64,000 bases of DNA from an uncultured Gemmatimonadaceae bacterium. Its GTDB lineage: Bacteria; Gemmatimonadota; Gemmatimonadetes; Gemmatimonadales; Gemmatimonadaceae. Positions 1-63,671 of the stretch are shown here, piece by piece (the first letter of the stretch is position 1; every line of letters starts with the position of its first letter). The position numbers and the translations under genes were made by a program. The notes under the pieces are model-generated. The model worked only from the letters and a program-made list of their open reading frames with translations, searched no databases and was not told the DNA's origin. The DNA lies in the NCBI GenBank assembly GCA_963829055.1, contig CAWHHI010000011.1, positions 512,001-576,000 on the forward strand. The letters run 5' to 3'.

Positions 1-1716
1 CCCGCCTAACGCGCCGAGGCGTTCGCCCATACCCGTCAGGCCGAGCCCGGGATCGCCCGTCAGGCCGCGACCGTCATCGCGTACCTCGAGGTCGAGCGCG
101 CCAGCCCGCTGCACGAGCACGATCGTCACCGACTGCGCGCGCGCGTGGCGCGCGACGTTCGACAGCGCTTCCTGCAGGGCGCGGAACAGCGCCAGCTCCG
201 CGTCCCGCGACAGTGGCGGCAACGCGCTCGGCGCCGTGAACGACATGACGATTCCGGTGCGTTCCCCGAATCCCTCGACCAGCGCGTGCAGCGCCGAGAG
301 CAATCCCAGCTCGTCGAGCAGTGGCGGACGGAGATCGCGCGCGATGCTCCGGATGCTCGCCATTCCCGTATCGACCAGATCGAGCACGCGATCCATCCGC
401 GGGGCGAGCGCGGGTTCGACGGACTCGCGCAACACGCCGAGCTGCAGCTTCACCGCCGCGAATGCCTGCGCCGTCTCGTCATGCAGCTCCAGCGAGATGC
501 GGCGTCGCTCTTCCTCGTGTTGCCGTACCATGCGCACCGAGAGCCGCTCGAGCTGACGGGTGCGTGCGGCCAACCGACTCGTCAGGTCCGCGTTCTCCAG
601 GGCCGCGCCGACCTGCCGGCCGAGCGTGCGCAGGAACTCCTGACCGAGCGCGGTGAACGGATCGCCCTCGTTCCCGACGATCACGAGCGCGCCGACGTGC
701 TCGGCGTCGCGGATGACGGGCAGCACCGCGAGGTACGCGAAGTCGTCGCAGGACTGATCGAACGGGTCGGGCCAGTCGCGCGCCACTTCGGGAGAGCCGG
801 AGCGCATGGCTTGGCGCATGGTCTCCCACGCGGGGCCGAGTGGGGCGCGCCCGCCCCAGCCGGCGCACGCGCCGACGCCGCGCACGAAGACTCCGGTCTT
901 CTCCGCCTCGGCGCCATTTCCGTTCGCGGTCGAATCGGTGGCTCGATCGGTCAGACATAACGCGGCCCCACGCACGCCGCCCAGCGCCAGCGGTCGAGCC
1001 AGCAGCGAGTCGATGACGTCCGGGCCAGGTTGCGTGGGCGACCCGCTCGCGGACTGAAGGTCACCCGACAGCGCCGAGAGCGTCGCGAGCCCGCGGCGAA
1101 GATCTTCGACGACGAGCATCAGGATGCCGGCGCCAAGCGCGAGGACGAAGCAGATGTCGAGATAGTAGCCCCACGGATTCCACGCGCCGCGAGCCCGAAG
1201 CAGTGGGTAGTCGAGGTGGTGCAGCCCCCAGAGCACGAGGACGCCGGCGACGAAGCCGGCTGCGCGCGATCCAGTACGGCGGTGATAGCGCCAGAACGTC
1301 AGGCCTGTCCAGAGTGTCGCCAGGCTGAGGAACAGCACGGCGGGCCCTGCGGCGAGAAAGAAGTTCGCGAGCCGATAGATGGCGACGTAGGACCAGAGCG
1401 GCGGGAACAACACGAGTGCGAGATACCACCGTCGCCACTCGACGCGCTGCGAGAACGCGAGCGCGGCCCCCAGAAGCGCGAGCGCCGTCCAGCCGGTGAG
1501 TACTTGATGGACGTAGAGCCAGGGCTCGGAGGCGGTCGTGAGGAACCCACAGATCGCGCCAATGCGGAGCACGTACAGCCCCCACGCGACTGCCCACCAG
1601 AGGAAGTACCGCTTGCGAAACTGGACGAACAGAAATGCGCACAACGCGGCGATGCCCAGGGTGATGACCGCCTGGAGCAACGCGGCATTCAGTTCACTGA
1701 GGGATGCGGGGCGCAT
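1..1716 (-). CDS. Membrane-bound sensor histidine kinase (HisKA_3 + HATPase_c, GAF-like segment); C-terminus runs off the window edge
   Basis: Manual translation: hydrophobic N-terminus MRPASLSELNAALLQAVITLGIAALCAFLF, H-box RRIALELHDETAQ, N-box QEALSNVARHA, G-boxes LEVRDDGRG and GLGLTGMGERL. ATG at 1716 is in the same frame as the C-terminal boxes; the middle was not checked codon by codon. Confidence 0.85.
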   Translation of the reverse strand, partial: MRPASLSELNAALLQAVITLGIAALCAFLFVQFRKRYFLWWAVAWGLYVLRIGAICGFLTTASEPWLYVHQVLTGWTALALLGAALAFSQRVEWRRWYLALVLFPPLWSYVAIYRLANFFLAAGPAVLFLSLATLWTGLTFWRYHRRTGSRAAGFVAGVLVLWGLHHLDYPLLRARGAWNPWGYYLDICFVLALGAGILMLVVEDLRRGLATLSALSGDLQSASGSPTQPGPDVIDSLLARPLALGGVRGAALCLTDRATDSTANGNGAEAEKTGVFVRGVGACAGWGGRAPLGPAWETMRQAMRSGSPEVARDWPDPFDQSCDDFAYLAVLPVIRDAEHVGALVIVGNEGDPFTALGQEFLRTLGRQVGAALENADLTSRLAARTRQLERLSVRMVRQHEEERRRISLELHDETAQAFAAVKLQLGVLRESVEPALAPRMDRVLDLVDTGMASIRSIARDLRPPLLDELGLLSALHALVEGFGERTGIVMSFTAPSALPPLSRDAELALFRALQEALSNVARHARAQSVTIVLVQRAGALDLEVRDDGRGLTGDPGLGLTGMGERLGALGG

Positions 1717-1723
1717 CACACAA

Positions 1724-1836
1724 AGCTATCAGCCATCGAGCCATCAGCCATCAGCTCCAGCAAGCACCAGCCAGCAACCAGCTTCAGTCCCCAGTCCGCC
1801 GAGTCCCCAGTCCCCAGTCCCCAGTCGCTAGTCCCC
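1724..1836. repeat. Short tandem heptamer repeats (AGCCATC-type and CCCCAGT-type)
   Basis: agctatc agccatc gagccatc agccatc ... agtcccc agtcccc agtcccc seen directly, overlapping the actP stop. Confidence 0.8.
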
Positions 1837-3423
1837 CGTCGTCCCCACGTGCATTCTGCGTTCGGTTGCCGCGAACCCGTCCGAGGCGACCTGATCGCGC
1901 TTCGCGAGAGAAACGAGAATGCCCACCGCGAATGACAGCGGGATCGTCACGAGCGCCGGATTCTTGAGCGGGAACCATGCGTCGGCATGCTTGAGCAGGT
2001 CCACCTGAATCGTCGGCGAGAACCAGATCAGGAGCAACGTCGTCACCGTGCCGATCACCATGCTCGAGACGACCCCTTCCGTCGTACACCGCTTCCAGAA
2101 AATCGACAGGACGAGCGCGGGAAAGTTGCCGCTCGCGGCGATCGCGAAGGCGAGCGAGACCATGTACGCCACGTTCTGCCCCTTGAACAGAATGCCGAGC
2201 AGCACCGCGATGACGTCCGAGCGCGACCGTCGCCACGCGCGCGACGCGGAGCTGTTCGCGCGCGTCAGCCTTGCCGTGGCGGAACACGTTGACCCACAGA
2301 TCGTGCGACAGCGCGGCCGCGCCGGAGAGCGTGAGCCCCGCCACCACCGCCAGGATCGTCGCGAACGCGACGGCGGCGATGAATCCGAGGAACGGCGTGC
2401 CGCCTAACACTTCCGCGAGCAACGGCGCCGCCATGTTGCCGCCCTTGTCCACCGCCTTGATGGCGTCCGGACCGACGAGCACCATCGCGCCGAAGCCGAG
2501 CACGAACGTCATCAGGTAGAACACGCCGATGAGGCCCGTCGCGTAGAACACCGACGTCCGCGCGGCGCGCGCGTCGGGTACCGTGTAGAAGCGCATCAGA
2601 ATGTGCGGCAGTCCGGCCGTGCCGAACATGAGCGCCATGCCTAACGAAATCGCATCCAGCGGCGCGGCGACGAGCTTGCCCGGCGCGAGGACGGCGTCGC
2701 CGTAGCGGTCCGCCGCCGCCGCGAACAGCGCGAGCGGATTCATCCCGAACTTCGCGAGCACCATGATGGCCAGAAGGCCGGCGCCGCCGAGCAGCAGGCC
2801 GGCTTTCACGATCTGCACCCACGTCGTCGCGATCATCCCGCCGAACAGCACGTACGCCAGCATCGCCGCGCCGACGATCACGATCGCCGTTTCGTACTGC
2901 AGACCGAACATGAGCCGGATCAATCCGCCGGCTCCGACCATCTGCGCGATCAGGTAGAAGATCACCGTCGACAGCGTTCCGATGGCCGCCGCGATGCGCA
3001 CCGGCGTCTGACTGCAGTCGAGCCGCGACAACATCGGCGAACGTGTACTTGCCGAGATTCCGCAGCGGCTCGGCGATCAGGAACAGGACGACTGGCCATC
3101 CGACGAGCCAGCCCGTCGAGTAGATGAGACCGTCGAACCCGGTGGTCGAGACGAGACCCGGCGATCCCCAGGAACGACGCCGCGCTCATGTAATCGCCCG
3201 CGAGCGCCATTCCGTTCTGCGCGGGCGTGATGGTTCGACCCGCCGCGTAGAAGTCCTCGGTGGTCCGCGTTCGTCGTGCGGCCCAGTACGTGATGCCGAG
3301 CGTGATCGCGATGAAAGCGAAGAAGAACACCATCGCGATGACGTTAGGCTCGCCGATCCGCGTCGTTACGGTGGCGCCCGCCGGCGCCTGTTGGGCCGCC
3401 TGGACGATCGTCATGACGGTCAT
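1828..3423 (-). CDS. actP: Cation/acetate symporter ActP (SSS family), three apparent frameshifts (~3157, ~3015, ~2215)
   Basis: Motifs [69 protein letters not shown] lie in successive frames; follows DUF485. Confidence 0.9.
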
Positions 3424-3701
3424 GTCGCTCGCCCCTCACGTCGCACGGCTTCGAGCCCGGCGTCGTAGTGCGTGTTCGCCCAGCGCACGTAGATCCACGT
3501 GAGCACCCACGACAGCACGATCACGAGCGCGCCGAGCAGCACGCCGACGCTGAGTCCCCGCGTCACGAGACGTCCCATGAGCGGCTTGTTGTACGCGATG
3601 AGCAGGATGAAACCGAAGTAGATGGCGACCATCACTGCCGTGAGGCTGATGGCGATGCGCCACCGCGTTTCCGCGAGCGACCGAAACCGCTGATCGGACA
3701 T
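3420..3701 (-). CDS. DUF485 (YjcH-like) inner membrane protein
   Basis: Two TM helices, [13 protein letters not shown] motif, 4-nt overlap with the actP start (conserved gene pair). Confidence 0.88.
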
Positions 3702-5290: not shown

Positions 5291-5932
5291 TCGTGTGCCG
5301 GCACCAGACCCGCTCGCGTCGCTCATCGACGAGCTCCGCGAGCCCGTTGTGGGCGACCCGGCGGCGAAGCGTCGGGTGATGGAGTTGGTTCGCGAATGCC
5401 CTGTCCCCGTCGCGACCGTCGGCGCTCGCGTACACGCGCTCCCGACGCGCTCCCGCGGCATTCGCCGCGATCCGCAAGCTGCGCGGCGAGCGGAGCGAAT
5501 TCCGACGCAGCGCGACCGCGAGCACGCTCGCGACCGCCGCCGGGATCGCCCTCCTCATGGCCGTCGGCAATCAGGACCGAGCGACGCCGCGCCTGACGCC
5601 CGCGCGCCGCGCCGTCATCATCGGCGATAGCGTTGCCTCCGTCGCGTCGGCGATCCGGGACACGCTTCGCATCGTCCAGTTCATCCTCACGGCACCTGCC
5701 GCGTCACGGGTGGCGCTCGCAGGCGACTTCAACGGCTGGGACACGCGCTCCGTACCGCTCACGCGCGAGACGCGAGACGGACGTTGGGCCGTCACGCTCG
5801 CGCTCGCGCCGGGCCGCCACCAATTACGCCTACGTCGTCGACGACACCCAGTGGGTGCGCGACCCCGTCGGCACGCCGGCCGAGCCTAACGAGCTGACGC
5901 CGCCGCGCTCGGTCGTCATCATCAACCGTTAG
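5283..5932 (+). CDS. Putative anti-sigma partner with C-terminal CBM48/AMPK-beta-like (isoamylase early set) domain, frameshifted
   Basis: Overlaps the sigma stop. VQFILTAPAASRVALAGDFNGWD...WAVTLALAPGRH, then YAYVVDDTQWVRDP in the next frame (~5822); at least one more shift near 5450-5550. Confidence 0.75.
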
Positions 5933-9554: not shown

Positions 9555-10595
9555 ATGACACCGGTGACACTCGCCGCGCCTCGCGACGACGATGAGCTCG
9601 AGGAACTCCTCTCGCGCCCGGCGCCGGCCGTCATCGACGCACTGCGTCGCGCGCCCGGTGACGTCATCATCCTCGGCGCCGGCGGCAAGATGGGACCGTC
9701 GCTCGCCACGATGGTACGACGCGCGGCCGACGCCCTCGATGACGGTCGAGACGTCACTGCCGTCTCTCGCTTCTCATCGCCTGACGCGGCTACGCGGCTC
9801 GAGCACGCAGGCATCCGCGTCGTGCGAGCCGAGCTCGGCGATCGTGACGCCATCGCGCGCCTGCCTGACGCGGCGAACGTCATCTACATGGCGGGGCAGA
9901 AATTCGGGACGCGTGATCTGCCGTCGCTCACGTGGGCGGTGAACACGCTCGTGCCCGCAATGGTCGCCGAGCGCTATGCATCGTCACGCATCGTCGCGTT
10001 TTCCACGGGGAACGTGTACCCGCTATCGCCGGCCAGCGGCACGGGGTCGCGCGAAAGCGACGCACTCACGCCCGTCGGTGAATACGCGAACTCGTGCGTC
10101 GGACGCGAGCGCGTCCTCGAGCACATATCGCGCACGCGCGGAACACCGATGTCGATCATTCGACTCAATTACGCGGTCGACCTGCGCTACGGCGTGCTCG
10201 TGGACATTGCGCAGCACATAGCCGCCGGTGAGCCCGTGCGGGTCGACATGGGATACGTGAACGTGATCTGGCAGGGTGATGCGAATGCGCAGGCCATCCG
10301 CGCCCTCGAGCTCGCCGCCTCGCCGCCGTTCGTGGTGAACGTCACCGGACCCGAACGACTCTCGGTTCGCGAAACCGCCGCGAAGCTCGGTGCGCTGCTC
10401 GGTGTTACTCCGCGCACCGAGGGCACCGAGGCGCCAGACGCGCTGCTCAGTGACACGTCGCTCGCGCAATCGCGCTTCGGACCGCCCGACGTCTCGACGG
10501 ACCAGCTCATCGAGTGGGTCGCCTCATGGGTCGCGCGCGGCGGAACTCGACTGGGCAAGGCGACGAAGTTCGAGGTGCGCGATGGTCGCTACTAA
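9555..10595 (+). CDS. NAD-dependent epimerase/dehydratase family protein
   Basis: IILGAGGKMG Rossmann motif, FSTGNVY, RLNYAVDLRYGVLVD. Confidence 0.88.
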   Translation: MTPVTLAAPRDDDELEELLSRPAPAVIDALRRAPGDVIILGAGGKMGPSLATMVRRAADALDDGRDVTAVSRFSSPDAATRLEHAGIRVVRAELGDRDAIARLPDAANVIYMAGQKFGTRDLPSLTWAVNTLVPAMVAERYASSRIVAFSTGNVYPLSPASGTGSRESDALTPVGEYANSCVGRERVLEHISRTRGTPMSIIRLNYAVDLRYGVLVDIAQHIAAGEPVRVDMGYVNVIWQGDANAQAIRALELAASPPFVVNVTGPERLSVRETAAKLGALLGVTPRTEGTEAPDALLSDTSLAQSRFGPPDVSTDQLIEWVASWVARGGTRLGKATKFEVRDGRY

Positions 10596-11676
10596 CGGTC
10601 GCCTCGAAACGCTGACGGCACTCCAGGCGATCCGCTCCGGCTGCGTCATCCCGGCGCACCCACTCGCGCTCACGGAGGATCGCAAGCTCGACGAGCGCCA
10701 TCAACGCGCGCTGACTCGGTACTATGTCGCCGCCGGCGCGGGCGGCATCGCCGTCGGCGTGCACACGACGCAGTTCGCCATCCGTGAGGCGAAGCACAGC
10801 CTGCTCCGTCCGGTCCTCGAGCTCGCGGCGACGACTGCGCGAGGCGCATTGCCCAGGCTTGGCGGCTCGCTCGACGCTCCGCGCCTCGCTCCATTCGCGC
10901 TCGTCGCCGGCGTCTGTGGTCCCACTCGTCAGGCGGTCGCCGAGGCAGAGCTCGCGAATTCGTTAGGCTACCACGCCGGTCTCCTCAGCCTCGCCGCCAT
11001 GCGCGGCTCGGAGCCCGCGGCGATCATCGCTCACTGCCGAGCGATCGCCGACGTCATGCCGCTCGTCGGCTTCTACCTGCAACCGGCGGTCGGCGGCATC
11101 CCGCTGGGCTACGCGTTCTGGCGAGAGTTCGCCGAGATCCCGAACGTCGTCGCCGTGAAGGTCGCGCCGTTCGACCGCTATCGAACGATCGATGTCGTCC
11201 GAGCCGTGAGCGACGCCGGCCGGACCGATATCGCGCTCTACACCGGCAACGACGACAACATCGTCGGGGATCTCGTAACGCCGTTCCCATTCGGCCAGGA
11301 CGGAGCGCCTCGTCGCTTCGTCGGCGGCTTGTTCGGCCAGTGGGCGGTGTGGACGCGTCGCGCCGTCGAGTTGCTCGATCAGGCGCGCGCAGCGAGCGAG
11401 ACCGATCACGTCCCGGCAGACTTGCTTCGCGTGGGCGCGGCACTCACCGACGCGAATGCCGCGGTGTTCGACGTGCGACACGCGTTCGCGGGCTGCATCG
11501 CGGGCATCCACGAGGTGCTGCGCCGGCAGGGACTCATGCGGGGCATCTGGTGCCTCGATCCGGCGGAAGGTCTCTCGCCGGGCCAGTCGGCGGAGATCGA
11601 CCGCGTGACGCGGTCTTACCCCGACCTCACCGACGACGAGTTCGTCGCCGCGCACCTGGACAGCTGGCTCGCCTAA
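10582..11676 (+). CDS. Dihydrodipicolinate synthase/aldolase family protein
   Basis: VIPAHPLAL, GIAVGVHTTQF, FYLQPAVGG, Schiff-base Lys in VAVKVAPF; overlaps the epimerase stop. Confidence 0.88.
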   Translation: MVATNGRLETLTALQAIRSGCVIPAHPLALTEDRKLDERHQRALTRYYVAAGAGGIAVGVHTTQFAIREAKHSLLRPVLELAATTARGALPRLGGSLDAPRLAPFALVAGVCGPTRQAVAEAELANSLGYHAGLLSLAAMRGSEPAAIIAHCRAIADVMPLVGFYLQPAVGGIPLGYAFWREFAEIPNVVAVKVAPFDRYRTIDVVRAVSDAGRTDIALYTGNDDNIVGDLVTPFPFGQDGAPRRFVGGLFGQWAVWTRRAVELLDQARAASETDHVPADLLRVGAALTDANAAVFDVRHAFAGCIAGIHEVLRRQGLMRGIWCLDPAEGLSPGQSAEIDRVTRSYPDLTDDEFVAAHLDSWLA

Positions 11677-11684
11677 CGCGTTGT

Positions 11685-26295: not shown

Positions 26296-26661
26296 ATGTC
26301 TTCCGTCAGCTTCTTTCGCTGGTCCGACCTTCCCGAGGAGCGTTTGTCGCCGCTGCTCGGGCGCAAGCTCATCACCGGTAGCCGGATGATGCTCGCGCAC
26401 GTGTATCTCAAGAAGGGATGCATTGTTCCCAAGCACAATCACGAGAACGAGCAGTTGACCTACATTCTCGAGGGCGCGCTACGCTTCTCGATCGGCGAGG
26501 ATGGAAGCGAGACGGTCGACGTGCGGGCGGGAGAGGTGCTGCACATTCCCTCGTTCGTCTGGCACCAGGCCGAGGCGCTCGAGGACACGCTCGACGTGGA
26601 CGTGTTCAGTCCACCGCGTCAGGACTGGATCGACAAGACGGACGCGTACCTTCGGCGTTAG
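26296..26661 (+). CDS. Cupin domain protein
   Basis: PKHNHENEQLTYILEG...HIPSFVWHQA...DVFSPPRQDW. Confidence 0.9.
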   Translation: MSSVSFFRWSDLPEERLSPLLGRKLITGSRMMLAHVYLKKGCIVPKHNHENEQLTYILEGALRFSIGEDGSETVDVRAGEVLHIPSFVWHQAEALEDTLDVDVFSPPRQDWIDKTDAYLRR

Positions 26662-26990
26662 GCGCGGCGGCGAATGGCGTGGCGGATGGCGGCGGCGATG
26701 CCCACCGCCACGCCGACCCCGATCATCAGCAGACCGAGCGACGACTGCGCGCTGAAGTAGTCGGCGCGCTGTACGTACGACGTGACGCCGGCAGGCAGTG
26801 TCTGCGTGCCGTTCGCGAGCGACGCGAGGCCGTTCCGCGCGAGCAGGAACAACGTGGTGCCGGCGACGATCGTGAGCATCGAGAGCGCATCCCACAGTCG
26901 GTCGGCGGAGTGCACGACACTGGCGGCGCCGTGCGGGCCACGCGGCTGAACGAACTCGATGTGTGCCGGGACTCCGAGCGGTGTATCCAC
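26658..26990 (-). CDS. Hypothetical two-TM membrane protein (start uncertain)
   Basis: Two hydrophobic segments; convergent stop overlaps the cupin stop. Confidence 0.55.
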   Translation of the reverse strand: MDTPLGVPAHIEFVQPRGPHGAASVVHSADRLWDALSMLTIVAGTTLFLLARNGLASLANGTQTLPAGVTSYVQRADYFSAQSSLGLLMIGVGVAVGIAAAIRHAIRRRA

Positions 26991-46135: not shown

Positions 46136-46831
46136 ATGCCCGCCGTTTCCATTGCCGCTCTTCGTGAGCTCATCGAGCAGCGCTTTCCCGACGCGACGCC
46201 GGCTAATTGGCGGGCGGCGGAGCCGGTGGCAACCGGGGTGGGGCCGCTCGACCGGATTCTTCCGGGAGGTGGGCTTCCGCGTGGGCAGTTGACAGTGTGG
46301 ACGCCCCAGGGCGGGGCCTGTTCCATGTTGCGCGCCGCCTGTCGCTCCACGGTCGCCAACAGCGAGCGCGCCGTCTGGATCGATACGGCGGGGACGGTCG
46401 TCGGTGCGTTCTGGGAAGTCGGGCCGTTTCTCGTGCAACCCAAGAGTCGGAAGGACGCCCTGAAAGGGGCCGAGGAGCTTCTCCGGTGCGGTGGGTTCGC
46501 GCTGGTGGTACTGGACGGTACGGAGCCGGAGGGGACGGAGATGGTTCGTCTCACGCGCGCGGTGCGGGAGGGGGGTGGCGCGTTCGTAGCCATCACGCCT
46601 CATCCGTCACTGGCGAAGCTCCGCATGGAGTCGAAGATCATTCCCCACAGCTATCGGTGGACTCATGGGCCGTTCGATGATCCGGTCGAAGTGCAGCATG
46701 CGACCATCAAGGTCCGGGCGCGGGCCGCGGGATGGAATGCTTCTGCCGAGATCACGGTCCCGATAATTCCTCACGATGTTCGTCTGTCTCTGGAGCCCGG
46801 CCTGGCGGACCGTCGCGGACTCCCTCGCTGA
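46136..46831 (+). CDS. imuA: ImuA/RecA-like mutasome accessory protein
   Basis: ATGVGPLDRILPGGGLPRGQL, AVWID, AEELLRCGGFALVVLD; degenerate Walker A; precedes imuB. Confidence 0.8.
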   Translation: MPAVSIAALRELIEQRFPDATPANWRAAEPVATGVGPLDRILPGGGLPRGQLTVWTPQGGACSMLRAACRSTVANSERAVWIDTAGTVVGAFWEVGPFLVQPKSRKDALKGAEELLRCGGFALVVLDGTEPEGTEMVRLTRAVREGGGAFVAITPHPSLAKLRMESKIIPHSYRWTHGPFDDPVEVQHATIKVRARAAGWNASAEITVPIIPHDVRLSLEPGLADRRGLPR

Positions 46832-48323: not shown

Positions 48324-48364
48324 ACTGCGCTGCACGCTGGGCACACCTGCCGACGGCTGCATGC

Positions 48365-48407
48365 AGCTACCAGCTCTAGCCGATAGCTGATAGCTGATAG
48401 CTTTTTT
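48365..48407 (+). terminator. Heptamer-derived hairpin plus T-tract after imuB
   Basis: AGCTACCAGCT...(GATAGCT)3-TTTTT. Confidence 0.45.
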
Positions 48408-48409
48408 CC

Positions 48410-49306
48410 ATGACTATTCATACGATCCTCCTTCCCTACGACTCTGGCCACCGCGACGCCCGCATGGGGCGTGGGCCACTGCACTTACGCGAACGTGGCG
48501 CGCTCGATCGACTGCGCGCGGCGGGGCACGATGTCATCGAATCGCTCGTCGAAGCGCCTGACGCGTTCCCGACCGAGATCGGGACCTCGTTCGCGCTCTA
48601 CCGGGTGCTGGCTGAGGACGTCCGCGCGACCGTGACCGGCGGAGCCTTTCCGCTCACTCTCGCCGGGAACTGCGGCAGCGCACTCGGCACCGTGAGCGGG
48701 GTGCGGGCCGCCACGCCTAACGACCGTTCGGATGTCGGCGTCATCTGGCTCGATGCCCACGCCGACTTCAACACGCCCGAGACAACCGCGACCGGCTTTC
48801 TCGATGGCACAGCACTCGCCGCACTCGCGGGCCACTGCTGGCACACGCTCACGGCGTCCATTCCCGGCTTTCGCCCGGTGTCCGACGCCCACGTCGTGCT
48901 CGTCGGCGCACGCGACCTCGACGCCGGCGAGGAAACCGCTCTCGCGCGATCACAGATCGCGCGCGTCGAGGCGGCACGGATGCAGTCAGACGGCGCCCAG
49001 GCTGCGCTCGACGATGCGCTGACCACGCTCGCCCGCCGCCACATCTCGCGCGTCTACCTGCACATCGATCTCGACGTCCACGAACCAACCGACGCTCAGG
49101 CGAATCAGTACGCGGTCCCGGGTGGTCTTTCCCCGAGCACGGTGCGCGACCTCGTCAGCGTCGTCGCCGATCGCTTCGAGATCTCCGCGGCCGCACTCAC
49201 GGCGTACGATCCGGCGTACGACGCGGACGGACGAATGCTGAACGTCGCAATGGAGTTGATGGGACGCGTCGCGAGCGTGTCATCCCGGGTGAAGCGAGAG
49301 ATCTAG
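48410..49306 (+). CDS. Arginase/ureohydrolase family protein
   Basis: AGNC, WLDAHADFNTPET, VLVGARDLD, YLHIDLDV. Confidence 0.9.
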   Translation: MTIHTILLPYDSGHRDARMGRGPLHLRERGALDRLRAAGHDVIESLVEAPDAFPTEIGTSFALYRVLAEDVRATVTGGAFPLTLAGNCGSALGTVSGVRAATPNDRSDVGVIWLDAHADFNTPETTATGFLDGTALAALAGHCWHTLTASIPGFRPVSDAHVVLVGARDLDAGEETALARSQIARVEAARMQSDGAQAALDDALTTLARRHISRVYLHIDLDVHEPTDAQANQYAVPGGLSPSTVRDLVSVVADRFEISAAALTAYDPAYDADGRMLNVAMELMGRVASVSSRVKREI

Positions 49307-49311
49307 ATCCA

Positions 49312-49450
49312 TGTCATTCCGAGCGGAGGCCGCAGGCCGGAGTCGAGGAATCCTTGGCTTGCAGGGTAGAGGGCCCTTTATAAGGACAGTCTCGATTCCT
49401 CATGCGCCCGCCGTTCGCGGGCACCCGGCTGGCGCTCGCTCGGAATGACA
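49312..49450. repeat. REP-like palindromic element directly upstream of dnaE2
   Basis: TGTCATTCCGAGCG...GAGTCGAGGAATC / GATTCCTC...CGCTCGGAATGACA. Confidence 0.85.
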
Positions 49451-49457
49451 CGGTTCC

Positions 49458-52400
49458 GTGTTCGCTGAGCTTCGAGCGCATACCGGCTTCTCGTTCGGCG
49501 ACGGCACCATCACGCCCGAACGGCTCGTCGACCGCGCCATCGCGTTAGGCTTCACCGCCATCGGCGTCACCGACACCGCCGACCTCGGCGGCATCCCCCG
49601 CTTCGTGAACGCCGCGCGTCTGAGCGGCAAGCTGCGACCCATCGTCGGCGTCGAGCTCCGCGTGGATGGCCGACCCGCCGCGTTCCTCGCCCGCACCGCC
49701 GAAGGCTACCGCAACCTCGCCGCGCTCGTCACCCGCGCGCGCATGGGCGCGTGGGCGAGCTGGACCAAGACCAACGGCCAGGACCGCCGCGGCAGGCCTA
49801 ACGTGACGTGGCGCGAAGTCGCCGAGCTCAGCGTCGGGCTGCACGCGCTCACCGGACCCGCGACCGGCCCCATCGCCGCCACCGTCCGCGCCGGTGATCG
49901 CGCGAACGCGCGCCGCATGCTCGACGAATGGCGCGAGGTATTCGGTGAGCGACTCGCCGTCGAAGTGCAACTGCACTACACCGGCGGCGCCGAGGGCGCA
50001 CTCGCTGGCGCGCTCGTCGACCTCGCCGAGCGACGCAAGATTCCCTGGGTCGTCGCGCATGACCCGCGCTACATCGACAACGACGGCCGACTCGTGCACG
50101 ATGCGCTCACGGCGCTGCGCTACAACGTCGACGTCGATACCGCGACCAAGGGCGGCTTCCTCCATCCGAACGGCGAGTGGCGCCTCCTCTCTCCGGAGGA
50201 GATGGGGCGCCGGTGGCAGGGCCGCGAGCAGGGCATCGAGGAGAGCGCGCGCATCGCCGCCGAATGCGGCGACTTCGAGCTCGGGTGGATGCGTCCGCCG
50301 ATGCCGAAGTTCCCCGTGCCGGGTCGCCACACCGACGAGAGCTTCCTCGAGGAGCGAGTCTACATCGGCGCGAAGGAGCGATGGGGAGACACGCTGAGCG
50401 ACGCGCAGGTTGCGCAGATCCAGAAAGAGCTCGGCGTCATCGGCCGCCTCGGATTTGCCGGCTTCTTTCTCGTCATGTGGGATGCGGTGCACTACGCCCA
50501 GGAGAAGGGCATCCTCTGTCAGGGTCGGGGCAGCGCCGCCAATTCGGTGATCGCGTACCTGCTTGGCATCACGGCCGTGGATCCGGTGCGACATGGCTTG
50601 CTGTTCGAACGCTTTCTCTCCGAAACGCGCGCCGACGGCAAGACCGCCGAGCCGCCGGACATCGACGTCGACTTCGAGCACGACCGGCGTGAGGAAGTCC
50701 TCGACTACGTCTACGAGAAATACGAGCGGTCGAAGGCGGCGATTACGTGCACCGTCCAGAATTATCGGGCGCCTAACGCCATACTGGACGCGATGCGCGC
50801 GTTCGGTTATCCCGCGGAGTTGGCCGTGCAGTTCTCCAAGCGGCTGCACTATTCGGAGCCCGCGGACGCCGTCACGGCGATGCGCGACGGGCTGGCGAAG
50901 CGGTTCGAGCTCGACATCGAGGGGCCACGCGGCCGCGCCCTGCTCGCCGCCATCGGGGCATTCGATGGGCTGCCGCGGCTTCGCTCCACACATGTCGGTG
51001 GATTCGTGCTGTCATCGGCGTCGTTAGGCGACTACATGCCCATCGAGCAGACGACCATGGGACGCACGATCATCCAGTTCGACAAGGACGACCTGGACAT
51101 GATCGGCGTGCCGAAGTTCGACTTCCTCGGACTCGGCGCCCTGTCACTCGTGCGCTACGCGTTCGATGAGATCGAGCGGCGCACGGGCAACCGGCCAGCC
51201 ATGTATCGATTGCCGCCGGACGACGCGAAGACGTACGACCTCATCTCCCGCGGCGAGACGATCGGTACGTTCCAGATCGAGAGCCGCGCGCAGATCGCGT
51301 CCATCCTGCACACGAAGCCCGAACGGCTCTACGACATCGTCGTGCAGGTCGCGCTCATCCGTCCCGGCCCTATCCAGGCGAAGTTCGTCCGCCCCTACAC
51401 GCGCAGGCGGCGCGGACAGGAGGAGGTGTTCTACCAGCATCCCAATCTGCGGCCGATTCTCGAGCGCACGCAGGGCATCCCGATCTTCCAGGAGCAGGCG
51501 ATGGCGGTGTCGATGGCGTTAGGCGGCTTCAGTGCCGCCGAGGCTGACGAGCTGCGTCGCACGATGGGCCACATGCGGAAGAAAGGGAGACTCGTGTCGG
51601 TGCTCGAGAAGCTCGAGGCGCGCATGATCGCGAACGAGGTCGCCCCGGACATCGCGCATCAGATCTGCGAAGACCTGCAGAGCTTCGCCAACTATGGATT
51701 CCCCGAGTCGCACGCGTGGAGCTTTGCGCTGATAGCGTACGCGACGGCGTGGCTCAAGACGCACCACCCGACGGAGTTCTACTTCGGCATCCTCAACGCG
51801 TGGCCCATGGGCTTCTACTCGCCGGCGACGTTGATCCATGATGCCGGTCGTCATCGGGTAGAAGTGCGGCCGCCCTGCATGCGTGACGGTCAGCGCATGT
51901 GTACGACCGAGGAGACCGACGATCCGGCGCGCCCTGCCCTGCGTGTGGGCTGGCGTTATGTGCATGGCATCGGGGAGAAAGCGCTCGATGCGCTCGAGGC
52001 GGCCTGGAAGCTCGGGCGGTTCACGTCCATCGAGGACGTCGTGCGCCGAGCGAGCCTCGGCCGATCCGATGCGCTGTATCTCGCACGCGCGGCGGCGTTC
52101 AACGCCTGGGAACCCGACCGTCGCAAGGCTGGCTGGGAGGCGCTCCGCTGTGTGAGCGACACGCTCCCGCTCGCGCCGGCGCGTCCCGCGCATCATTCGC
52201 CGCGCGTGCTCGACCAGACCGAGACGATTTTCCTCGACTACGCGACGACGGGCACGAGCATCCACGGGCATCCGATGCAGCATCTGCGCGAATTTCTCAC
52301 GTCGCGCGGCGCGAAGAGCAGCGCCGACCTGCCATCGCTTCGTGGAGGCGAGACGATCGCCATCGCCGGACTGGTGACGGTGCGTCAGCGTCCGCAGACG

Positions 52401-52625
52401 GCGAAGGGGACGTTGTTCCTGCTGCTGGAGGACGAGTTCGGCTTCATCAACGTGATCGTGCCGAACACGCTCGTGGAGGATAACGCCGAGGTCGTGAAGT
52501 TCGCGCCGTTCATTGCCGTGCAGGGCCAGTTCCAGCGCGACGGGCAGGTGATGAACGTGGTGGGACGCCGCTTCCGCGCGCTGCGTACGCACGAGATCGC
52601 GACGAAGTCACGCGACTTTCGCTGA
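49458..52625 (+). CDS. dnaE2: Error-prone DNA polymerase DnaE2 (ImuC)
   Basis: PHP domain, GRGSAANS, PPDIDVDFEH, HVGG, KFDFLGLG, FQIESRAQ, YGFPESHA, C-terminal SRDFR motif typical of DnaE2. Confidence 0.96.
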   Translation: MFAELRAHTGFSFGDGTITPERLVDRAIALGFTAIGVTDTADLGGIPRFVNAARLSGKLRPIVGVELRVDGRPAAFLARTAEGYRNLAALVTRARMGAWASWTKTNGQDRRGRPNVTWREVAELSVGLHALTGPATGPIAATVRAGDRANARRMLDEWREVFGERLAVEVQLHYTGGAEGALAGALVDLAERRKIPWVVAHDPRYIDNDGRLVHDALTALRYNVDVDTATKGGFLHPNGEWRLLSPEEMGRRWQGREQGIEESARIAAECGDFELGWMRPPMPKFPVPGRHTDESFLEERVYIGAKERWGDTLSDAQVAQIQKELGVIGRLGFAGFFLVMWDAVHYAQEKGILCQGRGSAANSVIAYLLGITAVDPVRHGLLFERFLSETRADGKTAEPPDIDVDFEHDRREEVLDYVYEKYERSKAAITCTVQNYRAPNAILDAMRAFGYPAELAVQFSKRLHYSEPADAVTAMRDGLAKRFELDIEGPRGRALLAAIGAFDGLPRLRSTHVGGFVLSSASLGDYMPIEQTTMGRTIIQFDKDDLDMIGVPKFDFLGLGALSLVRYAFDEIERRTGNRPAMYRLPPDDAKTYDLISRGETIGTFQIESRAQIASILHTKPERLYDIVVQVALIRPGPIQAKFVRPYTRRRRGQEEVFYQHPNLRPILERTQGIPIFQEQAMAVSMALGGFSAAEADELRRTMGHMRKKGRLVSVLEKLEARMIANEVAPDIAHQICEDLQSFANYGFPESHAWSFALIAYATAWLKTHHPTEFYFGILNAWPMGFYSPATLIHDAGRHRVEVRPPCMRDGQRMCTTEETDDPARPALRVGWRYVHGIGEKALDALEAAWKLGRFTSIEDVVRRASLGRSDALYLARAAAFNAWEPDRRKAGWEALRCVSDTLPLAPARPAHHSPRVLDQTETIFLDYATTGTSIHGHPMQHLREFLTSRGAKSSADLPSLRGGETIAIAGLVTVRQRPQTAKGTLFLLLEDEFGFINVIVPNTLVEDNAEVVKFAPFIAVQGQFQRDGQVMNVVGRRFRALRTHEIATKSRDFR

Positions 52626-57062: not shown

Positions 57063-57066
57063 TGTC

Positions 57067-59136
57067 TCAGTTCGGCTTGATTGGGAATTCGGGCTTGCGT
57101 ATCGCCATCGAGTCGACCGAGACGGGGCGCCAATCGACCTGGTCGAGCGCGGCGACCGTCGACGACACGAGGTCCGCGAGACCAGCCATCGGGTTTTGCA
57201 TGTCGATTGGCTTGCTCTCGACCACACGCAAGACGCGATTCCGCTGCACGTCGAACAGCTGCAGCTGCAGCACGATGGCAGAGTCGGAGCGCGGGTAGTA
57301 CAGGCCTGTCATGACCGCGCCTGCTCCTACGGCACGCGCGAGTGCCATGCGCGTCCGCGATGCATAGAAGCGCGGATCGGTGAGCGTCGCCGCGTCGACG
57401 GCGTCATAGCCCGGTCGTGCCGCTATGGCGCGACGGAGACTGTCGGAGATGGCCAACGCCACGCCCGCGAGGTCGCGTCGCAGCGTCGAGTTGCGCGCGG
57501 CACCGATCAGCACACGCCGGACGCCCGGCGGCGGCGGTGGCACGGGCGGCGTTTCCGACGGCGCGATGCGATACACCGTCGCCCCGGGGGCGTTAGGGTC
57601 GGGCACCGGGCGCGGACCGCCAGCGGCACCGGGCACGCCCGTGACTCCTGGAACGTTAGGCATTGTCGCCGACATCCTCGCCAACTCGCGGAACTTCTCG
57701 ATCTCCTTCGGATCGAAGCCGGGTGGCATCTCGCCGCGCCGTTCGCCGCGCCGCAGCGCTCCGACGATTCGCATCAGCGAATCGCTCAGCGCCTTTTCGA
57801 AGCGCAGCGACAACGAATCCGCGAGCGCGCGCTCGCCTTTCGCCACCTGCGAATCACGCCGCGCCGTCACGCGCTTGCGGATCGCGTCGGCGATCGCCAG
57901 CGACTCCGCACGCGTGAGCACGATCGGCGCCCGTGCGGCCGAGTCGGCGAACGGACGGGTCGAGGCACCGCTCGGCACTGGCACCGTGGCGGTGGCGGGA
58001 GCCGTCGCCGTGGCGGTCACCGACGCCGCCGCGCCGGTCCCGCTGCGGCGCCACGTGCCTAACGCCACAGCGACGCCGCCAACGACCACCAGCAGCGCGC
58101 CGGCAACGAGCGCGCGTCGTTGTCCAGCCGCGCGTGCCGCCGGCCCCTTCGCGGTCACCGCGCCGGACCCCACCGTACCTCCGGGTGGCGTAGACACCCC
58201 ATCCAGCTCGTCCAGCAGCGCGTTCGCCGTCTGCGGACGATGCTCGGGCAGCTTCTCCAGGCACCGCATGATCACCGCCGACAGTGCCGGCGGCACATCG
58301 TCGCGGATCGTGTCGAGCGGGTCGGGAACGCGCGTGAGCTGCGCCGCCATCGTCGCCTGCGGTGAGGTCCCGACGAACGGCGATTGCCCCGACAGCAGCT
58401 CGTACGCGAGCAACCCGACCGCGTAGATGTCGATGCGATGGTCCGCCGCCGGATCGGCCGCGAGTTGCTCGGGTGCCATGTACGCCGGGGTGCCGATGGC
58501 CATCCCCGCCGACGTCATCCCCGACACTGGCATCGCCGCGCTGAGCGCCTTGGCGACACCGAAGTCGGTGACGAGCGCGTGAGCGCCGCGCGCATCGCCT
58601 GTGTACCCGGCGAGCAGGATGTTGCCCGGTTTGATGTCGCGGTGTACGACGCCTCGACCATGCGCATACGCGAGCGCGCCGACCACGTCGTGCAGGATCC
58701 GCAGCACCTCACGCACCGGAAGCCGGCCACGGCGCACGATCGCCGCGCGCAACGACTCGCCCTCGATGAACGGCATCGTGTAGTACAGCAGCTCGCCTTC
58801 AGTCGCCGCGCCCGACGTGATGCTGGTCGCGCGCGACTGTGCGGTCACGTCGTCGGCGGCGGGAGGTGCGTCAGACGACGGGATTCTGCCGGCTGAGAGC
58901 AGCGGGACGATGTGCGGATGCTGGAGCTGCGCCGCGACCTGGATCTCACGCTGGAAGCGCTCGCGGTTCACACCCGCCGAGAGCTCGGGCGGCAGCACTT
59001 TGATGACGACCTTCCGGCCGAGCGCGTGTTCGGTCGCGGCAAAGACGCGACTCATGCCGGCTCCAACCAGCTCGTCGTCTATCCGGTAGGTGGCAGCGAG
59101 CGCTGCGGCGAGGCGGTCGCGGAAGTAGTCGGTCAC
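57067..59136 (-). CDS. Hanks-type Ser/Thr protein kinase with TM helix and C-terminal alpha/beta (TolB_N-like) domain
   Basis: GAGMSRVF, VVIK, HRDIKPGN, DFG, GTPAYMAPE; TM ALVAGALLVVVGGVAVAL. Confidence 0.92.
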   Translation of the reverse strand: MTDYFRDRLAAALAATYRIDDELVGAGMSRVFAATEHALGRKVVIKVLPPELSAGVNRERFQREIQVAAQLQHPHIVPLLSAGRIPSSDAPPAADDVTAQSRATSITSGAATEGELLYYTMPFIEGESLRAAIVRRGRLPVREVLRILHDVVGALAYAHGRGVVHRDIKPGNILLAGYTGDARGAHALVTDFGVAKALSAAMPVSGMTSAGMAIGTPAYMAPEQLAADPAADHRIDIYAVGLLAYELLSGQSPFVGTSPQATMAAQLTRVPDPLDTIRDDVPPALSAVIMRCLEKLPEHRPQTANALLDELDGVSTPPGGTVGSGAVTAKGPAARAAGQRRALVAGALLVVVGGVAVALGTWRRSGTGAAASVTATATAPATATVPVPSGASTRPFADSAARAPIVLTRAESLAIADAIRKRVTARRDSQVAKGERALADSLSLRFEKALSDSLMRIVGALRRGERRGEMPPGFDPKEIEKFRELARMSATMPNVPGVTGVPGAAGGPRPVPDPNAPGATVYRIAPSETPPVPPPPPGVRRVLIGAARNSTLRRDLAGVALAISDSLRRAIAARPGYDAVDAATLTDPRFYASRTRMALARAVGAGAVMTGLYYPRSDSAIVLQLQLFDVQRNRVLRVVESKPIDMQNPMAGLADLVSSTVAALDQVDWRPVSVDSMAIRKPEFPIKPN

Positions 59137-59503
59137 GTCGGACGGCGGGGCTCCGGGCGTAGCGCGAAGAAAGTGGAAGTTATCCGGTGTCGGCGTCGCG
59201 CGTAACGCCACGGGCGACCGCACATCCCTCGGACACATCGGGCCGTCCCATCGGTTCGTCGCTGAAGTTTTCGTAACGCATTCATTACCGTTCCCACACC
59301 CAGACGTGGCACCAATGCACCAGCTAATGGGTATGGTGTAGCTACGGGCGGATTATTCCCGGCATTCATGACGACGAGGGAAACGCTTCTGGCTCGAAGA
59401 TGATCTAATCTTCGAGCAACCTGAGCCAGTTTCCCGCGTTTGCGGGGAAGGAGTGGGCCGGCGGGTAGTCTGCAGCGTGACCTTGGTCTCGGAGCACGAG
59501 TTC

Positions 59504-62500
59504 GTGACACTGGCGGGCGAGTTGCGCGAGCAATTGCAGAGTTCCCTGGGCGACGTATTCGCCATCGAGCGTGAGCTCGGTGGCGGGGGAATGAGCCGCG
59601 TATTCCTCGCCCGCGAGCTCGCGCTGGACCGTCAGGTCGTCATCAAGGTCCTGCACCCCGAGCTCGCCGGCGTGAACGTGGACCGGTTCCGTCGCGAGAT
59701 CCAGGTCGTCGCCCAACTGCAGCACCCGCACATCGTTCCGGTGCTCGCGGCCGGCGATACGCTCGGCATCCTGTACTTCACGATGCCGTACATCGACGGC
59801 GAGTCGCTCCGGGCGTGGCTGGTGCGGGAGTCACGACTGCCGGTCGATGACGTCGTCCGGATCCTCCACGACGTCGCCGATGCGCTCGCGTACGCGCACG
59901 AGCGCGGCGTCGTGCACCGCGACATCAAGCCGGACAACGTGCTTGTCAGCCGCCGGCATGCGATGGTCACGGACTTCGGTGTCGCGAAGGCGCTGACCGT
60001 AGCGGCACACGGGGCCGGCGATGACCCGAGCAACGAGCCGTCGATCTCCACGACCACCGGTAGCGGGCTCGCGATCGGAACGCCCGCGTACATGGCGCCC
60101 GAACAGGCGGCGGGCGACCCGTCGACCGACCATCGCGCTGACATCTACGCCTTCGGCGTGCTCGCCTACGAGCTCCTCGCTGGCCGCCCGCCGTTCACGG
60201 GTCGGCGGCCGAGCGAGATTCTCGCGGCGCACATCGCCGAATTGCCGCAACCGATCGAGACGCTCCGCGCCGATCTGCCGCCCGCGTTGTCGGCGTTGGT
60301 GATGAGCTGTCTGGCGAAGCGGCCGATCGATCGGCCGCGCTCCGCAGTGGATGTCCGCGCGACGCTCGAGTCGTTGGCGACTCCGGGTGCCGGCACCGTG
60401 GTCAGCCCAACCGTCCGTCGCCGGCGCGCGGCCAGGCGAGCTGTCGGCATCACGGTCGCCGTGGCGTTGACACTGGTGGCGACGGCGGTCGCGTACTCAC
60501 GGCGTCAGGCCGAACGACCGCCGGTAGACGAGGGCCTCGTCGCCGTGGCGCCGTTCCGCGTCGCGAGTCGAGACGCGTCGCTGCGCTACCTGCGTGAGGG
60601 CATGCTCGACCTGCTCTCGGCCAAACTCACGGGAACCACGGGGCCTCGATCGGCCGACCCGCGATCGCTGCTCACGGCATGGCGTCGCGAGGCCGGCGCC
60701 GACTCGGCCGACCTGTCGCGCGCGCGCGCACTCGAGGTGGCCGAAGCGTTAGGCGCCGGCCAGCTGCTCATCGGTGATGTCACGGGGGACTCGTCGCATA
60801 TCACGCTCCAGGCCGTGCTCGTGCGTGTGCGTGACGGACGGGCGTTGGCACCGGCGAAAGTGGAAGGCGACCCGGACAGCCTGCCGAAGCTCGTCGACAT
60901 GCTGACCGCGCAGCTGCTGACGACGGATGCCGGCGAGGACGATCGTCTGGCGACGCTCACGAGTACGTCACTGCCGGCGCTTCGCTCGTTCCTCAACGGG
61001 CAGTGGCTCTACCGGCGCGGCCGGTATCGCGATGCGGCACAGGCATACTCCGCGGCCGTCGATCTCGACACGACGTTCGCGCTCGCCGCGCTACGCCTGG
61101 CGAGCGCCAGCAACTGGTTTGGTGTCCCCGGCCTCCGCGAAAAGGGCCTGCGACTCGCGTGGGCTGGGCGCGAGCGACTGGATCCGCGAGATCGCGCGCT
61201 GCTCGACGCAACGGCGGGACCGAACTATCCGTCGGCGTCGAGCTATCTCGACATCATGAAGGCGAAAGAGCGGTACGTCACGCTCGCGCCCGACCGCGCT
61301 GACGCGTGGTTCGAGCTTGGCGACGGGCTGTTTCACTTCGGCGCCGTCGTGGGCTACGCGGATTCCGACACACGCGCCGCCGACGCGTTCAAGCGAGCGT
61401 TGGCGCTCGACTCGACGTATGCACCCGCGGCCGAGCATCTCGTTGTTGATCGAGGCGCATCAAGGGGACACGGGCTCGGTGCGCCAGTTGGGCCAGCATT
61501 TCCTGGCGATCGACCCGGCGAGCGAGAACGCCGACGGCGTTCGCTGGCGCATGGCCGTCGCGTTAGGCGACTCGGCATCCCTGGCGGCGATCACACGCCG
61601 GCGTGACACGCTGACGCCGATCAGCGCGCACACGATGGCGTACATGAGCCAGCTCGACGCCGTCGATCTCGATCGTGCGCAGCGCGTTGCTGAGGCGGCG
61701 GTCGAGAACGCGCGCGCGGCGGGTGACAAGTACGCCGCGCTGGTGAGCGCGCATGACCTCGCCCTCAATCGCGGGCGGCCGTCGGCGGCGGTGGTGGCGA
61801 CGGCGCGGAGCCGCGATGTGGCCGTGACGAGTGCGCGCGTGTACCTGCGCGAGCGCATCCGGGACGCGCTGTACTGGGATGGCGACAGCACAGCCGCGGT
61901 CGCCGCGGCGCACGAGCTGGAGCGGACCGCGTTCGGCGCGGCGCCGGAGAAGCCGGCGGATCGTTATGCGCAGCTCGTGGACCTCTGTAACGTGGAGCTG
62001 TGGCGCGCGGGGCACGGCGATGCGCGCACGGTAGCGGGCAGCATCGCGCGACTGCGGCGGGTGTCGGCGTCGTCGGAGGACGCGGGGATCACGGCATTCG
62101 CGCACGCGTGCGCGACGCTGCTGGACGCGGTGGCGGCGACGAGCAGTGGTCGCGCCGATGCGCCAGTCGCGGTCGCGAAGCTCGACTCGATGCTTCGTAC
62201 GGGACCTGGCGGGTTCGTGCAGGATGCTGGGAACCTGATGCTCGCGCGACTCAAGGAGCGCCGCGGCGACGTGCGTGGCGCGTTGGCGGCGGTGCGTCGT
62301 CGCGAGACGTTCCTCACGCGTCCACTCTATCTGTCGACGTTCCTGCGCGAGGAGGGCCGTCTGGCGGCGCTGGCGGGGGAGAACGACGCGGCGATCGAGG
62401 CCTACCGCCACTACCTGACACTGCGCGCGGCGCCGGAGCCGCCGCTCAGGTCAGAGGTGGAGTACGTGCGTGATGAGCTCGGGAAGCTCGAGCGCGCGAA

Positions 62501-62516: not shown

Positions 62517-62556
62517 GCCATCAGCCATCAGCCATCAGCCATCAGCCATCAGCCAC
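62516..62556. repeat. (AGCCATC)5 tandem heptamer
   Basis: Five perfect copies plus one partial. Confidence 0.92.
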
Positions 62557-62561
62557 GGCGT

Positions 62562-62660
62562 TGTCATCCCGAGCGGCAGCGAGGGATCTTCTCGAACGGC
62601 ATCGTAGCCGAATTGGCCACGAGAACCGTCAGAAGATCCCTCGCTGCGCTCGGGATGACA
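62562..62660. repeat. REP-like palindromic element between convergent genes
   Basis: TGTCATCCCGAGCGGCAGCGAGGGATCTTCT / AGAAGATCCCTCGCTGCGCTCGGGATGACA. Confidence 0.9.
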
Positions 62661-62736
62661 CGCCGTTTCTCCGCCCTCCGCCGTCCGCCTCCGCCGTCCG
62701 CCCGCCGCCGTCCTCCTCCTTCCTACGGCCTCCTTC

Positions 62737-63671
62737 CTAAGGCCTGGCGGGTAGACTCGCCTTCCCGGTCGCGAACTCGAAGTGGCTACCGGACGGGAGA
62801 ACGTGCAGGCGGACGTCGGTCGCGCCTAACGTCGATTTGTCCGGTGTGACCGCCGCGTGTCTCGCGTCGTAGATCACCGCCTGCGACGCGCCAATGACGT
62901 CCCACGCACCGCCGGGCGACACCACGATCGCCGTCGATTCGTCAATGCCGACGCCGACGAAATTCGGGCGCTCCAGCACGACGCTGATGAGCCGGTTGTG
63001 CCGGCGGCGACGCAGGAAGTGCTGATCCACCGTCACGTTAGGCGGCAGGAAGCCGAAGCCGGGGACGAGCACGACGTCCTCGCGATCGATCGTCATCCAG
63101 CCGTCGCTCGAGTCACTCGGCGGGCGAGCACCACCGGGACGCCGTTCGTCACCGCTGATCATCGGATCCGACATCACCGCCGCGCCAGCCGACGTACCGC
63201 CGACAACGGCGCCGTGCCGGAAGCGCGAGCGAATCGAATCGAGAACGGCCGTTCCGAGGATCGCGGCGGTCAGGCGGCTCTGATCGCCGCCGGGGAACCA
63301 GATCCCAGTCGCCTGGCCGAGCAGTCGCGCGATGGAGTCGGCGCCAGTGTCGTTTCGCGCAAGGTTGAGCGACACGGCCTGCGCCGCACCAAGCTTCCGA
63401 AAATCAGCCGCCTTCTCGGCTCCCGACTCCGTGCCGGATTCGCTCGCCATCGGGAACACGACGATGCGCGCCTTCCCTGCTCCACCGGCGAGGTCGAGGA
63501 ATCGGCGATTCACGACCTCCGGAATCGGCCCGCCGCCGACGACGACGAGGTGACCGACTTGGGGACTCGGGGACTGGGGATTGGGGATTGGCGCAGACGG
63601 CACCGTTAGGCGCGGCCGAAGCACAGCCGGCGAGAAGCGACTACGGTAGCGAGTCGGATCAGGCGACGCAT
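62737..63671 (-). CDS. Cyanophycinase (peptidase S51), probably a lipoprotein; N-terminus frameshifted
   Basis: LVVVGGG, WFPGGDQSRL, GGTSAGAA nucleophile, DQHF...RHNRL, GIDESTA; MRRLIRLATVV/LLAGC signal in shifted frames from ATG 63671. Confidence 0.88.

Follow-up and report, generated by a model that had tools for sequence, protein, structure and literature searches.

In the window, which is the whole 64,000-nucleotide stretch of DNA analysed here, a short non-palindromic word with the core CCTAAC and the consensus (G)CCTAAC(G) recurs in dispersed copies on both strands (5..63610), and the same word is strongly over-represented throughout the source genome, that of an uncultured Gemmatimonadaceae bacterium (G000; 7.78 Mb in 20 contigs, the window being G000:C11:512001-576000). 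We give about an even chance to the word representing a third family of DNA-uptake sequences, independent of the others, and having spread through biased uptake with recombination, because its anatomy is the one expected from biased uptake followed by homologous recombination: dense, free of orientation, conserved yet turning over, split into dialects, absent from foreign blocks and redundant at short range. This reading presumes competence, a bias in uptake, a receptor for the word and a short-range exclusion that reflects fragment length.

Exact counting on the plus strand of the window gave 33 CCTAAC (at 5, 2403, 2640, 5885, 6613, 7755, 8701, 11672, 15549, 16736, 17892, 21008, 25215, 25767, 26279, 31670, 31845, 33502, 36298, 37278, 37544, 40575, 41821, 47693, 47943, 48716, 49797, 50772, 54193, 56374, 56528, 58058 and 62825) and 27 GTTAGG (at 3343, 5928, 7110, 10962, 15017, 18891, 18958, 19117, 26657, 27729, 29997, 33897, 34673, 35722, 40303, 47216, 49544, 51023, 51518, 53992, 55529, 57592, 57655, 60748, 61562, 63037 and 63605), that is, 60 copies in both orientations or about one per 1.07 kb. 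Fifty-two of them extend to CCTAACG and 41 to the octamer GCCTAACG, compared with 3.9 hexamers and 0.8 octamers expected under an order-2 Markov model. An earlier note on this DNA had counted 33, 27 and 52 copies by eye, and the recount agreed exactly; the hexamer also stood at all 16 positions given there as examples, one of which (2403) reads CCTAACA and not CCTAACG, while the background of about 20 hexamers estimated there was too high. A gene finder self-trained on G000 (6,725 genes, 74% of the genome covered) placed 41 of the 60 sites inside called genes and 2 at the end of one. The remaining 17 fell outside called genes, though, given this limited coverage, many of them probably lie in coding DNA as well. 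The word occurs in all four stop-free reading phases, in agreement with the description of the copies as mostly intragenic and in different frames. Two of the three stop codons that the word had been said to supply were found in the list of open reading frames (ORFs): the TAA of the copy at 11672..11677 (plus strand) ends ORF 10390-11676, and the TAG of the copy at 26657..26662 (minus strand; GTTAGG on the plus strand) ends ORF 26296-26661. At 5928 no ORF of at least 120 aa ends.

The excess extends across the genome. Hexamers numbered 7,103 in G000 against 511 expected and octamers GCCTAACG 5,004 against 102 (49-fold), with a hexamer density of 0.75-1.2 per kb on every one of the 20 contigs. 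The word ranked first at each length from 5 to 8, and its consensus, G(79%)CCTAAC G(90%), carries next to no information beyond these letters. Codon usage left most copies unexplained: 4,676 confident genes contained 1,875 CCTAAC and 2,174 GTTAGG, compared with 303-327 and 161-171, respectively, in three within-gene synonymous-codon shuffles. In these genes 1,705 of 2,451 TTA codons lie within the word; it also spells 1,056 of the 1,705 Pro-Asn pairs that have a G as the next base and, genome-wide, holds 220 of 617 TAA stops and 149 of 1,248 TAG stops. The word is no base-calling artefact, a doubt that the earlier note had raised, because a finished replicon from an isolate, plasmid 2 of Gemmatirosa kalamazoonensis (1.04 Mb), is full of it (701 copies versus 19 of the reversed word); short-read assemblies, fragmented relatives and MEGAHIT-style contigs are filled with it too. 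Many G000 genes are frameshifted (a comEA-like gene, a FimT-like pilin and others), which suggests indel errors in the assembly, and CTAG is strongly avoided in this genome (0.29 of expectation).

To describe the distribution of the word, we called genomes with at least 100 octamers per Mb word-rich. This held for 12 of the 40 nearest relatives of G000, including 6 of 6 from its genus, and for 8 of 250 genomes sampled across the phylum; the latter fall in two families, and a third family occurs among the 40 nearest relatives. Most other sampled genomes had the octamer below the reversed-word control. One word-poor row in the relative and phylum counts is an unpublished genome (G013), which is not the sole basis of any claim. 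We also scanned 185,579 species genomes for triplets of the octamer with a spacing of about 270 bp, a test that detects very rich genomes only; it returned 37 loci, 19 in Gemmatimonadota and 18 in Chthoniobacterales/Spartobacteria/Verrucomicrobiae, and none elsewhere. In Chthoniobacterales, the order of G273, 10 of 121 genomes were word-rich. The core is fixed and its surroundings form dialects: Gemmatimonadaceae use the 8-mer plus the variant GCATAACG, Chthoniobacterales use GCCTAACGA (A in 89-92%) without GCATAACG, and in G273 the dialect extends to a 14-base motif. The share of octamers followed by AG ranged from 5% to 68% in 16 enriched Chthoniobacterales and from 2-14% in 8 rich Gemmatimonadales. 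Together with the codon shuffles and the conservation described below, the phylum sample and the species scan support a selection or drive on the DNA word itself and its restriction to certain lineages, along the lines proposed earlier. The word also seems to be undescribed, as had been suspected: the literature searched held no account of it or of uptake sequences in these phyla, although supplements and subscription journals could hold the motif.

Neighbouring copies avoid each other. The pair correlation in G000 was 0.27-0.29 below 75 bp and returned to 1 near 325 bp in any orientation, while control octamers were spaced at random. Under a codon-aware null, in which the sites of each gene were redistributed over positions where synonymous recoding permits the word, 113 pairs were expected within 50 bp and 14 were observed. 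The best fit was a linear ramp with a floor of 0.25 and a length of 370 bp, which beat an exponential by 8 and a step by 26 log-likelihood units. The main word excludes the variants ACCTAACG, CCCTAACG, GCCTAACA and GCATAACG in the same manner but not GCCTGACG or GCCGAACG, from which we take the consensus that is read to be about RC(C/A)TAACR. Site pairs showed no helical (10-11 bp) phasing; 427 of 7,102 sites (6%) had a neighbour within 100 bp, and inverted pairs at 60-140 bp were depleted, leaving the genomic copies without a hairpin partner. No replichore polarity was seen in 100-kb bins of nine G000 contigs, nor any polarity along a 1.87 Mb G273 contig with a GC-skew switch.

Sites are conserved and yet turn over. 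In an alignment with G005 (168 kb, 80% identity), 100 of 161 G000 sites were kept, compared with 15-36% for eight control hexamers, and in one with G004 (184 kb) 69 of 162 were kept, compared with 3-47%, the 47% control being the preferred-codon spelling of Pro-Asn; most control values lay at 12-36%. Conservation in relatives, proposed earlier as a check, was observed in both comparisons. The sites lie in permissive positions. Those present in one genome only mostly differed by 2-4 substitutions, and those in coding DNA involved an amino-acid change in 46 of 83 and 37 of 67 cases. Indels near gained or lost sites were slightly commoner than in controls (28 of 125 and 29 of 125 versus 17% and 20%), and many of the orthologous word-less states lacked a GWT target. 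Divergence at four-fold sites did not change with distance from a copy of the word (0.40-0.48 in every bin), and neither relative showed a divergence halo of the kind that an altered mutation rate or protection would leave. A new site lay within 200 bp of a lost one 18 times versus 10.7 expected with G005 and 10 versus 6.5 with G004, which is suggestive only of compensatory turnover. The three largest word-free blocks (31-48 kb; C6:6854-55038, C6:591809-623330 and C11:7377-44055) lie at contig ends, have a foreign tetranucleotide make-up and contain housekeeping genes a second time, at 53-60% identity. They are probably chimeric or contaminating sequence; the word is scarce in this foreign DNA, which may stem from contamination of the assembly and not from recent transfers.

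The word has a second home in integrons. Word-poor relatives hold their scarce copies in same-strand runs about 550 bp apart, which are cassette arrays. The attC-like hairpins of these Gemmatimonadales arrays start with GCCTAACA and end with CGTTAGGC, so that the genome word has exactly the spelling of the right end of attC, and its minor variant GCCTAACA that of the left end. Among the commonest classes of right ends in the relatives' arrays, 51 of 56 match the word, and one array adjoins an integron integrase gene (G027 C80). The attC core sites are written R' GTTRRRY and R'' RYYYAAC; the word conforms to GTTRRRY, and its genomic copies do not show attC pairing, in which an inverse core lies 57-141 bp away between cassette genes. 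G000 itself holds just a handful of attC-like hairpins, scattered at C20:119-205 kb, and GTTAGAC is not enriched there (24 versus 57). Two attC-like sites in G273 end in the longer dialect of that genome. Of 26 word-poor Chthoniobacterales, two carry the AG extension on 40-49% of their scarce octamers, with an array-like strand skew, and 23 show at most 10. Loci L004-L008 (G027, G025) are long, homogeneous chromosomal integron arrays in word-poor Gemmatimonadales, with attC of 90-135 bp. The integron integrase (IntI) was rejected as the gene that discriminates rich from poor genomes, its presence not tracking word abundance (it matched in 13 of the 17 word-rich genomes and in 17 of the 24 word-poor ones). 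G000 carries a degenerate homologue just at the family cut-off (C20:208008-208985, minus strand; L001:1468-2445), which we take to lack the lysine and the first histidine of the usual catalytic set. It was rejected as the reader of the word, since just two of 69 other genomes, G001 and G003, have close orthologues.

If the word is an uptake sequence, a type IV pilus receptor would prefer extracellular DNA bearing (G)CCTAAC(G), word-bearing fragments would enter more often via PilQ/ComEA/ComEC and then recombine with the chromosome, and word-less alleles would be replaced over time wherever the protein tolerates it, by molecular drive and perhaps with some selection for self DNA. A second close copy would ride on the same short fragments and add little, which would account for an exclusion that ramps out to about 300-370 bp; in Haemophilus, two uptake signal sequences (USS) within 100 bp are reported to give no extra uptake (PMC7811141). 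A more speculative form, counted inside the uptake reading and in our view rather doubtful, is that the receptor was selected for the integron attC end, so that the cell prefers cassette DNA from the soil pool and the chromosomal copies are a by-product of molecular drive. A common external template of this kind would account for the convergence of two phyla on one octamer, each with a flank resembling its local attC and with no receptor gene in common. The flank match itself is thinly supported, by the two G273 sites and the strand-skewed AG extension in 2 of 26 word-poor Chthoniobacterales. For Vibrio, single-stranded DNA entering by transformation is reported to be an efficient integrase substrate (PMC12614218).

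G000 has genes for such a route. By family matches, with other gene names read from translations, pilMNOPQ with minor pilins and two major pilins lie at C12:393-403 kb and pilB/T/C with a ComEA-like gene at C12:489-495 kb; ComEC and DprA are present as well, and several of these pilus and competence genes are frameshifted in the assembly. An orphan FimT-like minor pilin at C8:164.9-165.3 kb, with one frameshift and the C-terminus GRVRR, is a weakly supported candidate receptor. Database names of its homologues include FimT, and the model of its G164 orthologue (predicted local distance difference test score, pLDDT, 95) matched FimU best and Legionella FimT weakly. A GRxR motif is reported to bind DNA in Legionella FimT (PMC8897410), and the predicted USS receptor is likewise FimT-like (PMC12616744). 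In a post hoc comparison, an RDR motif of this pilin occurred in 7 of 15 rich genomes versus 0 of 19 usable poor and 0 of 5 intermediate ones, the mistranslated G068 row being left out (best column p ~0.002 before correction; the richness label is not clustered on the tree). A metagenome check reduced 80 loci to 26 clusters; the 14 with 6 kb of flank or more were used and the other 12 dropped, and RDR was present in 4 of 4 rich and 0 of 10 poor clusters; 3 of the 4 RDR-bearing rich clusters belong to the G000 clade. RDR co-varies weakly with richness: five rich lineages, apparently separate, have it and no poor lineage does, and eight rich lineages are without it. In the model it sits on the long helix at the N-terminus, a location that does not clearly belong to the DNA-binding face. 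A ComEA-like helix-hairpin-helix domain is fused to a staphylococcal-nuclease-like domain in the word-rich Chthoniobacterales genome G274 (L247:712-1680, plus strand).

Several observations weigh against the uptake reading. The presence of the machinery explains nothing, because it is equally common in word-poor genomes (ComEC in 45 of 46 genomes; DprA, secretin and pilins in 5 of 5; ComEA does not discriminate either), and the FimT-like pilin occurs in 59 of 65 Gemmatimonadales, rich and poor alike; queried in word-rich Chthoniobacterales, it gave no match in 5 of 5, and the G000 pilins matched G273 in the N-terminal helix only. When 1.99 Mb of G273 (about half) was compared with the G000 gene set (897 protein pairs, median identity 37%), no outstanding shared DNA-binding candidate was seen by eye in the top 150 without word-poor subtraction. 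Conserved core genes are not denser in the word (0.74-0.79 per kb versus 0.84). The frequent inverted terminator pairs of known uptake sequences are nearly absent (the 7,102 sites form just 15 inverted pairs with a spacing of 35 bp or less), and exclusion is weak in G273 (0.7-0.8). Short fragments are also reported to recombine poorly in Haemophilus, an ill fit to the 300-bp scale (PMC7811141). Finally, in a tailed phage (G397), which has genes for terminase, portal and capsid, the word is as dense as in the host, with 26 copies in 28.5 kb or 910 per Mb; a reader inside the cell explains this as easily. No tyrosine integrase was found in its 61% complete record. Across three scans 2 of 55 viral loci were word-rich (2 of 40, 0 of 14 and 0 of 1), and the second gave no virion match and no useful Pfam match. 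A 50 kb viral contig with terminal repeats (L102, G398) has 24 octamers, and the 20 kb of it that were read encode hardly any recognisable protein.

An intracellular, sequence-specific protein, be it a nucleoid organiser, a loader of recombination or repair, or a defence reader of self versus foreign DNA, would need one site every few hundred bases in whatever DNA the cell contains; purifying selection would keep the sites, and phages would copy the word to pass as self. We regard this as possible without thinking it probable. It keeps that standing because it accounts equally well for the phage, for a density that is even across core and accessory genes and for the missing terminator pairs; the exclusion, moreover, ignores orientation and has a fixed scale, the four variants are excluded as though one protein read them all, and the word equals the binding core of a tyrosine recombinase. 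It sits less easily with the missing 10-11 bp phasing, with a ramp that fits better than a footprint-type step, with the absence of Chi- or KOPS-like polarity and with a patchiness within genera and families that would be odd for an essential organiser. Neither does the compared half of G273 offer a shared candidate, and the degenerate IntI of G000 is too narrowly distributed among the other genomes.

Very unlikely, in our judgement, is a methyltransferase with biased repair, HIP1-like or Vsr-like, that makes or protects the word by mutation bias alone. A 49-fold excess free of terminator or polarity signals would suit it, and several targets of bacteriophage exclusion (BREX) systems have an adenine in fifth place, as does the core. 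The flat four-fold-site divergence speaks against it, as do sites gained and lost by many routes, mostly of 2-4 changes, and the lack of a methyltransferase shared among word-rich genomes: PF01555 (N6/N4) and PF02384 (type I) had no match in G000 (86% complete) and none common to five word-rich genomes, other families having been screened by rough patterns only. Least likely of all is that the integron integrase writes the word, by cassette insertion at secondary sites with imprecise excision or by local conversion that leaves attC ends: the identity with attC right ends, in one array beside intI, and the reported genome-wide insertion and imprecise excision of cassettes (bioRxiv 10.1101/2022.09.11.507474) are outweighed by IntI being as common in poor as in rich genomes, by gains and losses that are substitutions with indels barely above controls and not insertion footprints, by the many word-less orthologous states without a GWT target, by conserved letters that flank the crossover point on both sides, which one junction cannot leave, and by the unenriched GTTAGAC, which attC tolerates.

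Of the four analogies drawn in the earlier note, uptake sequences fit best; a nucleoid binder survives within the intracellular alternative, and Chi and a HIP1-like or modification signal are disfavoured. Chi and FtsK-orienting polar sequences (KOPS) are over-represented non-palindromic octamers, and phages may carry Chi; unlike them, the word has no polarity along replichores in G000 or G273 and a far higher fold excess. The highly iterated palindrome HIP1 of cyanobacteria is a palindromic octamer linked to methyltransferases, with unclear function. The word resembles it in being an octamer written through coding DNA against codon habits, but it is non-palindromic and no shared methyltransferase was found (two families, five genomes). 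From attC it differs in that its genomic copies are single, lie in coding DNA and have no hairpin partner, and in that integrase presence does not track abundance. With the DNA uptake sequences (DUS) of Neisseriaceae, whose receptor is ComP, it shares a short non-palindromic form, thousands of copies at about one per 1-1.5 kb (1.1-1.5 kb for DUS; PMC2397512), conservation at permissive positions, lineage dialects round a fixed core (PMC3630211) and absence from foreign DNA. Unlike DUS, it has another sequence, no terminator pairing, short-range exclusion and patchiness within families, is common to two phyla, equals an attC end and has no identified ComP-like receptor. With the USS of Pasteurellaceae (predicted receptor ComN/PpdA, FimT-like) it shares a core with a weaker flank, as in the 14-base G273 dialect, a spacing of about 1 kb and a FimT-like candidate; it lacks AT-rich helical flanks, and its copies exclude neighbours where USS are reported to cluster, 23% having a neighbour within 100 bp (PMC7811141). 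As in both classes, we found an excess beyond codon use on both strands, conservation in permissive positions and genes for a pilus and competence. By analogy, the word may work like DUS and USS, as a putative member of the class.

The genes of the window are ordinary ones (DnaE2, kinases, transporters, glycosyltransferases), and an Rfam scan of the window gave 0 matches. The error-prone DNA polymerase gene dnaE2 (49458..52625, plus strand; NCBIfam NF004225 above cut-off) holds five copies in two reading phases (49544, 49797, 50772, 51023 and 51518) and is an ordinary host gene with no part in the mechanism. Another five copies (57592, 57655, 58058, 60748 and 61562) fall in two divergent Ser/Thr kinase genes (57067..61606), likewise ordinary host genes. 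Positions 46136-52625 form an imuA/imuB/dnaE2-like mutagenesis cluster, with an arginase-family gene between a polymerase-IV-like gene and dnaE2.

Sequence-specific uptake words have been described for Neisseriaceae and Pasteurellaceae; if the uptake reading is true, the word would add a third family in two abundant soil lineages. Its distribution is patchy enough for repeated gains or losses, so that comparisons could then test whether uptake sequences originate by drive or by selection. A cultured carrier exists in Gemmatirosa kalamazoonensis. The identity with attC could tie natural transformation to the acquisition of cassettes by chromosomal integrons. Should the reader instead act inside the cell, the 50-fold excess, the indifference to orientation and the 300-bp exclusion of a word found in two phyla and a phage would still point to a so far unknown system that reads DNA. 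The word may also be of practical use, as a watermark for spotting foreign contigs and for linking phages to these hosts.

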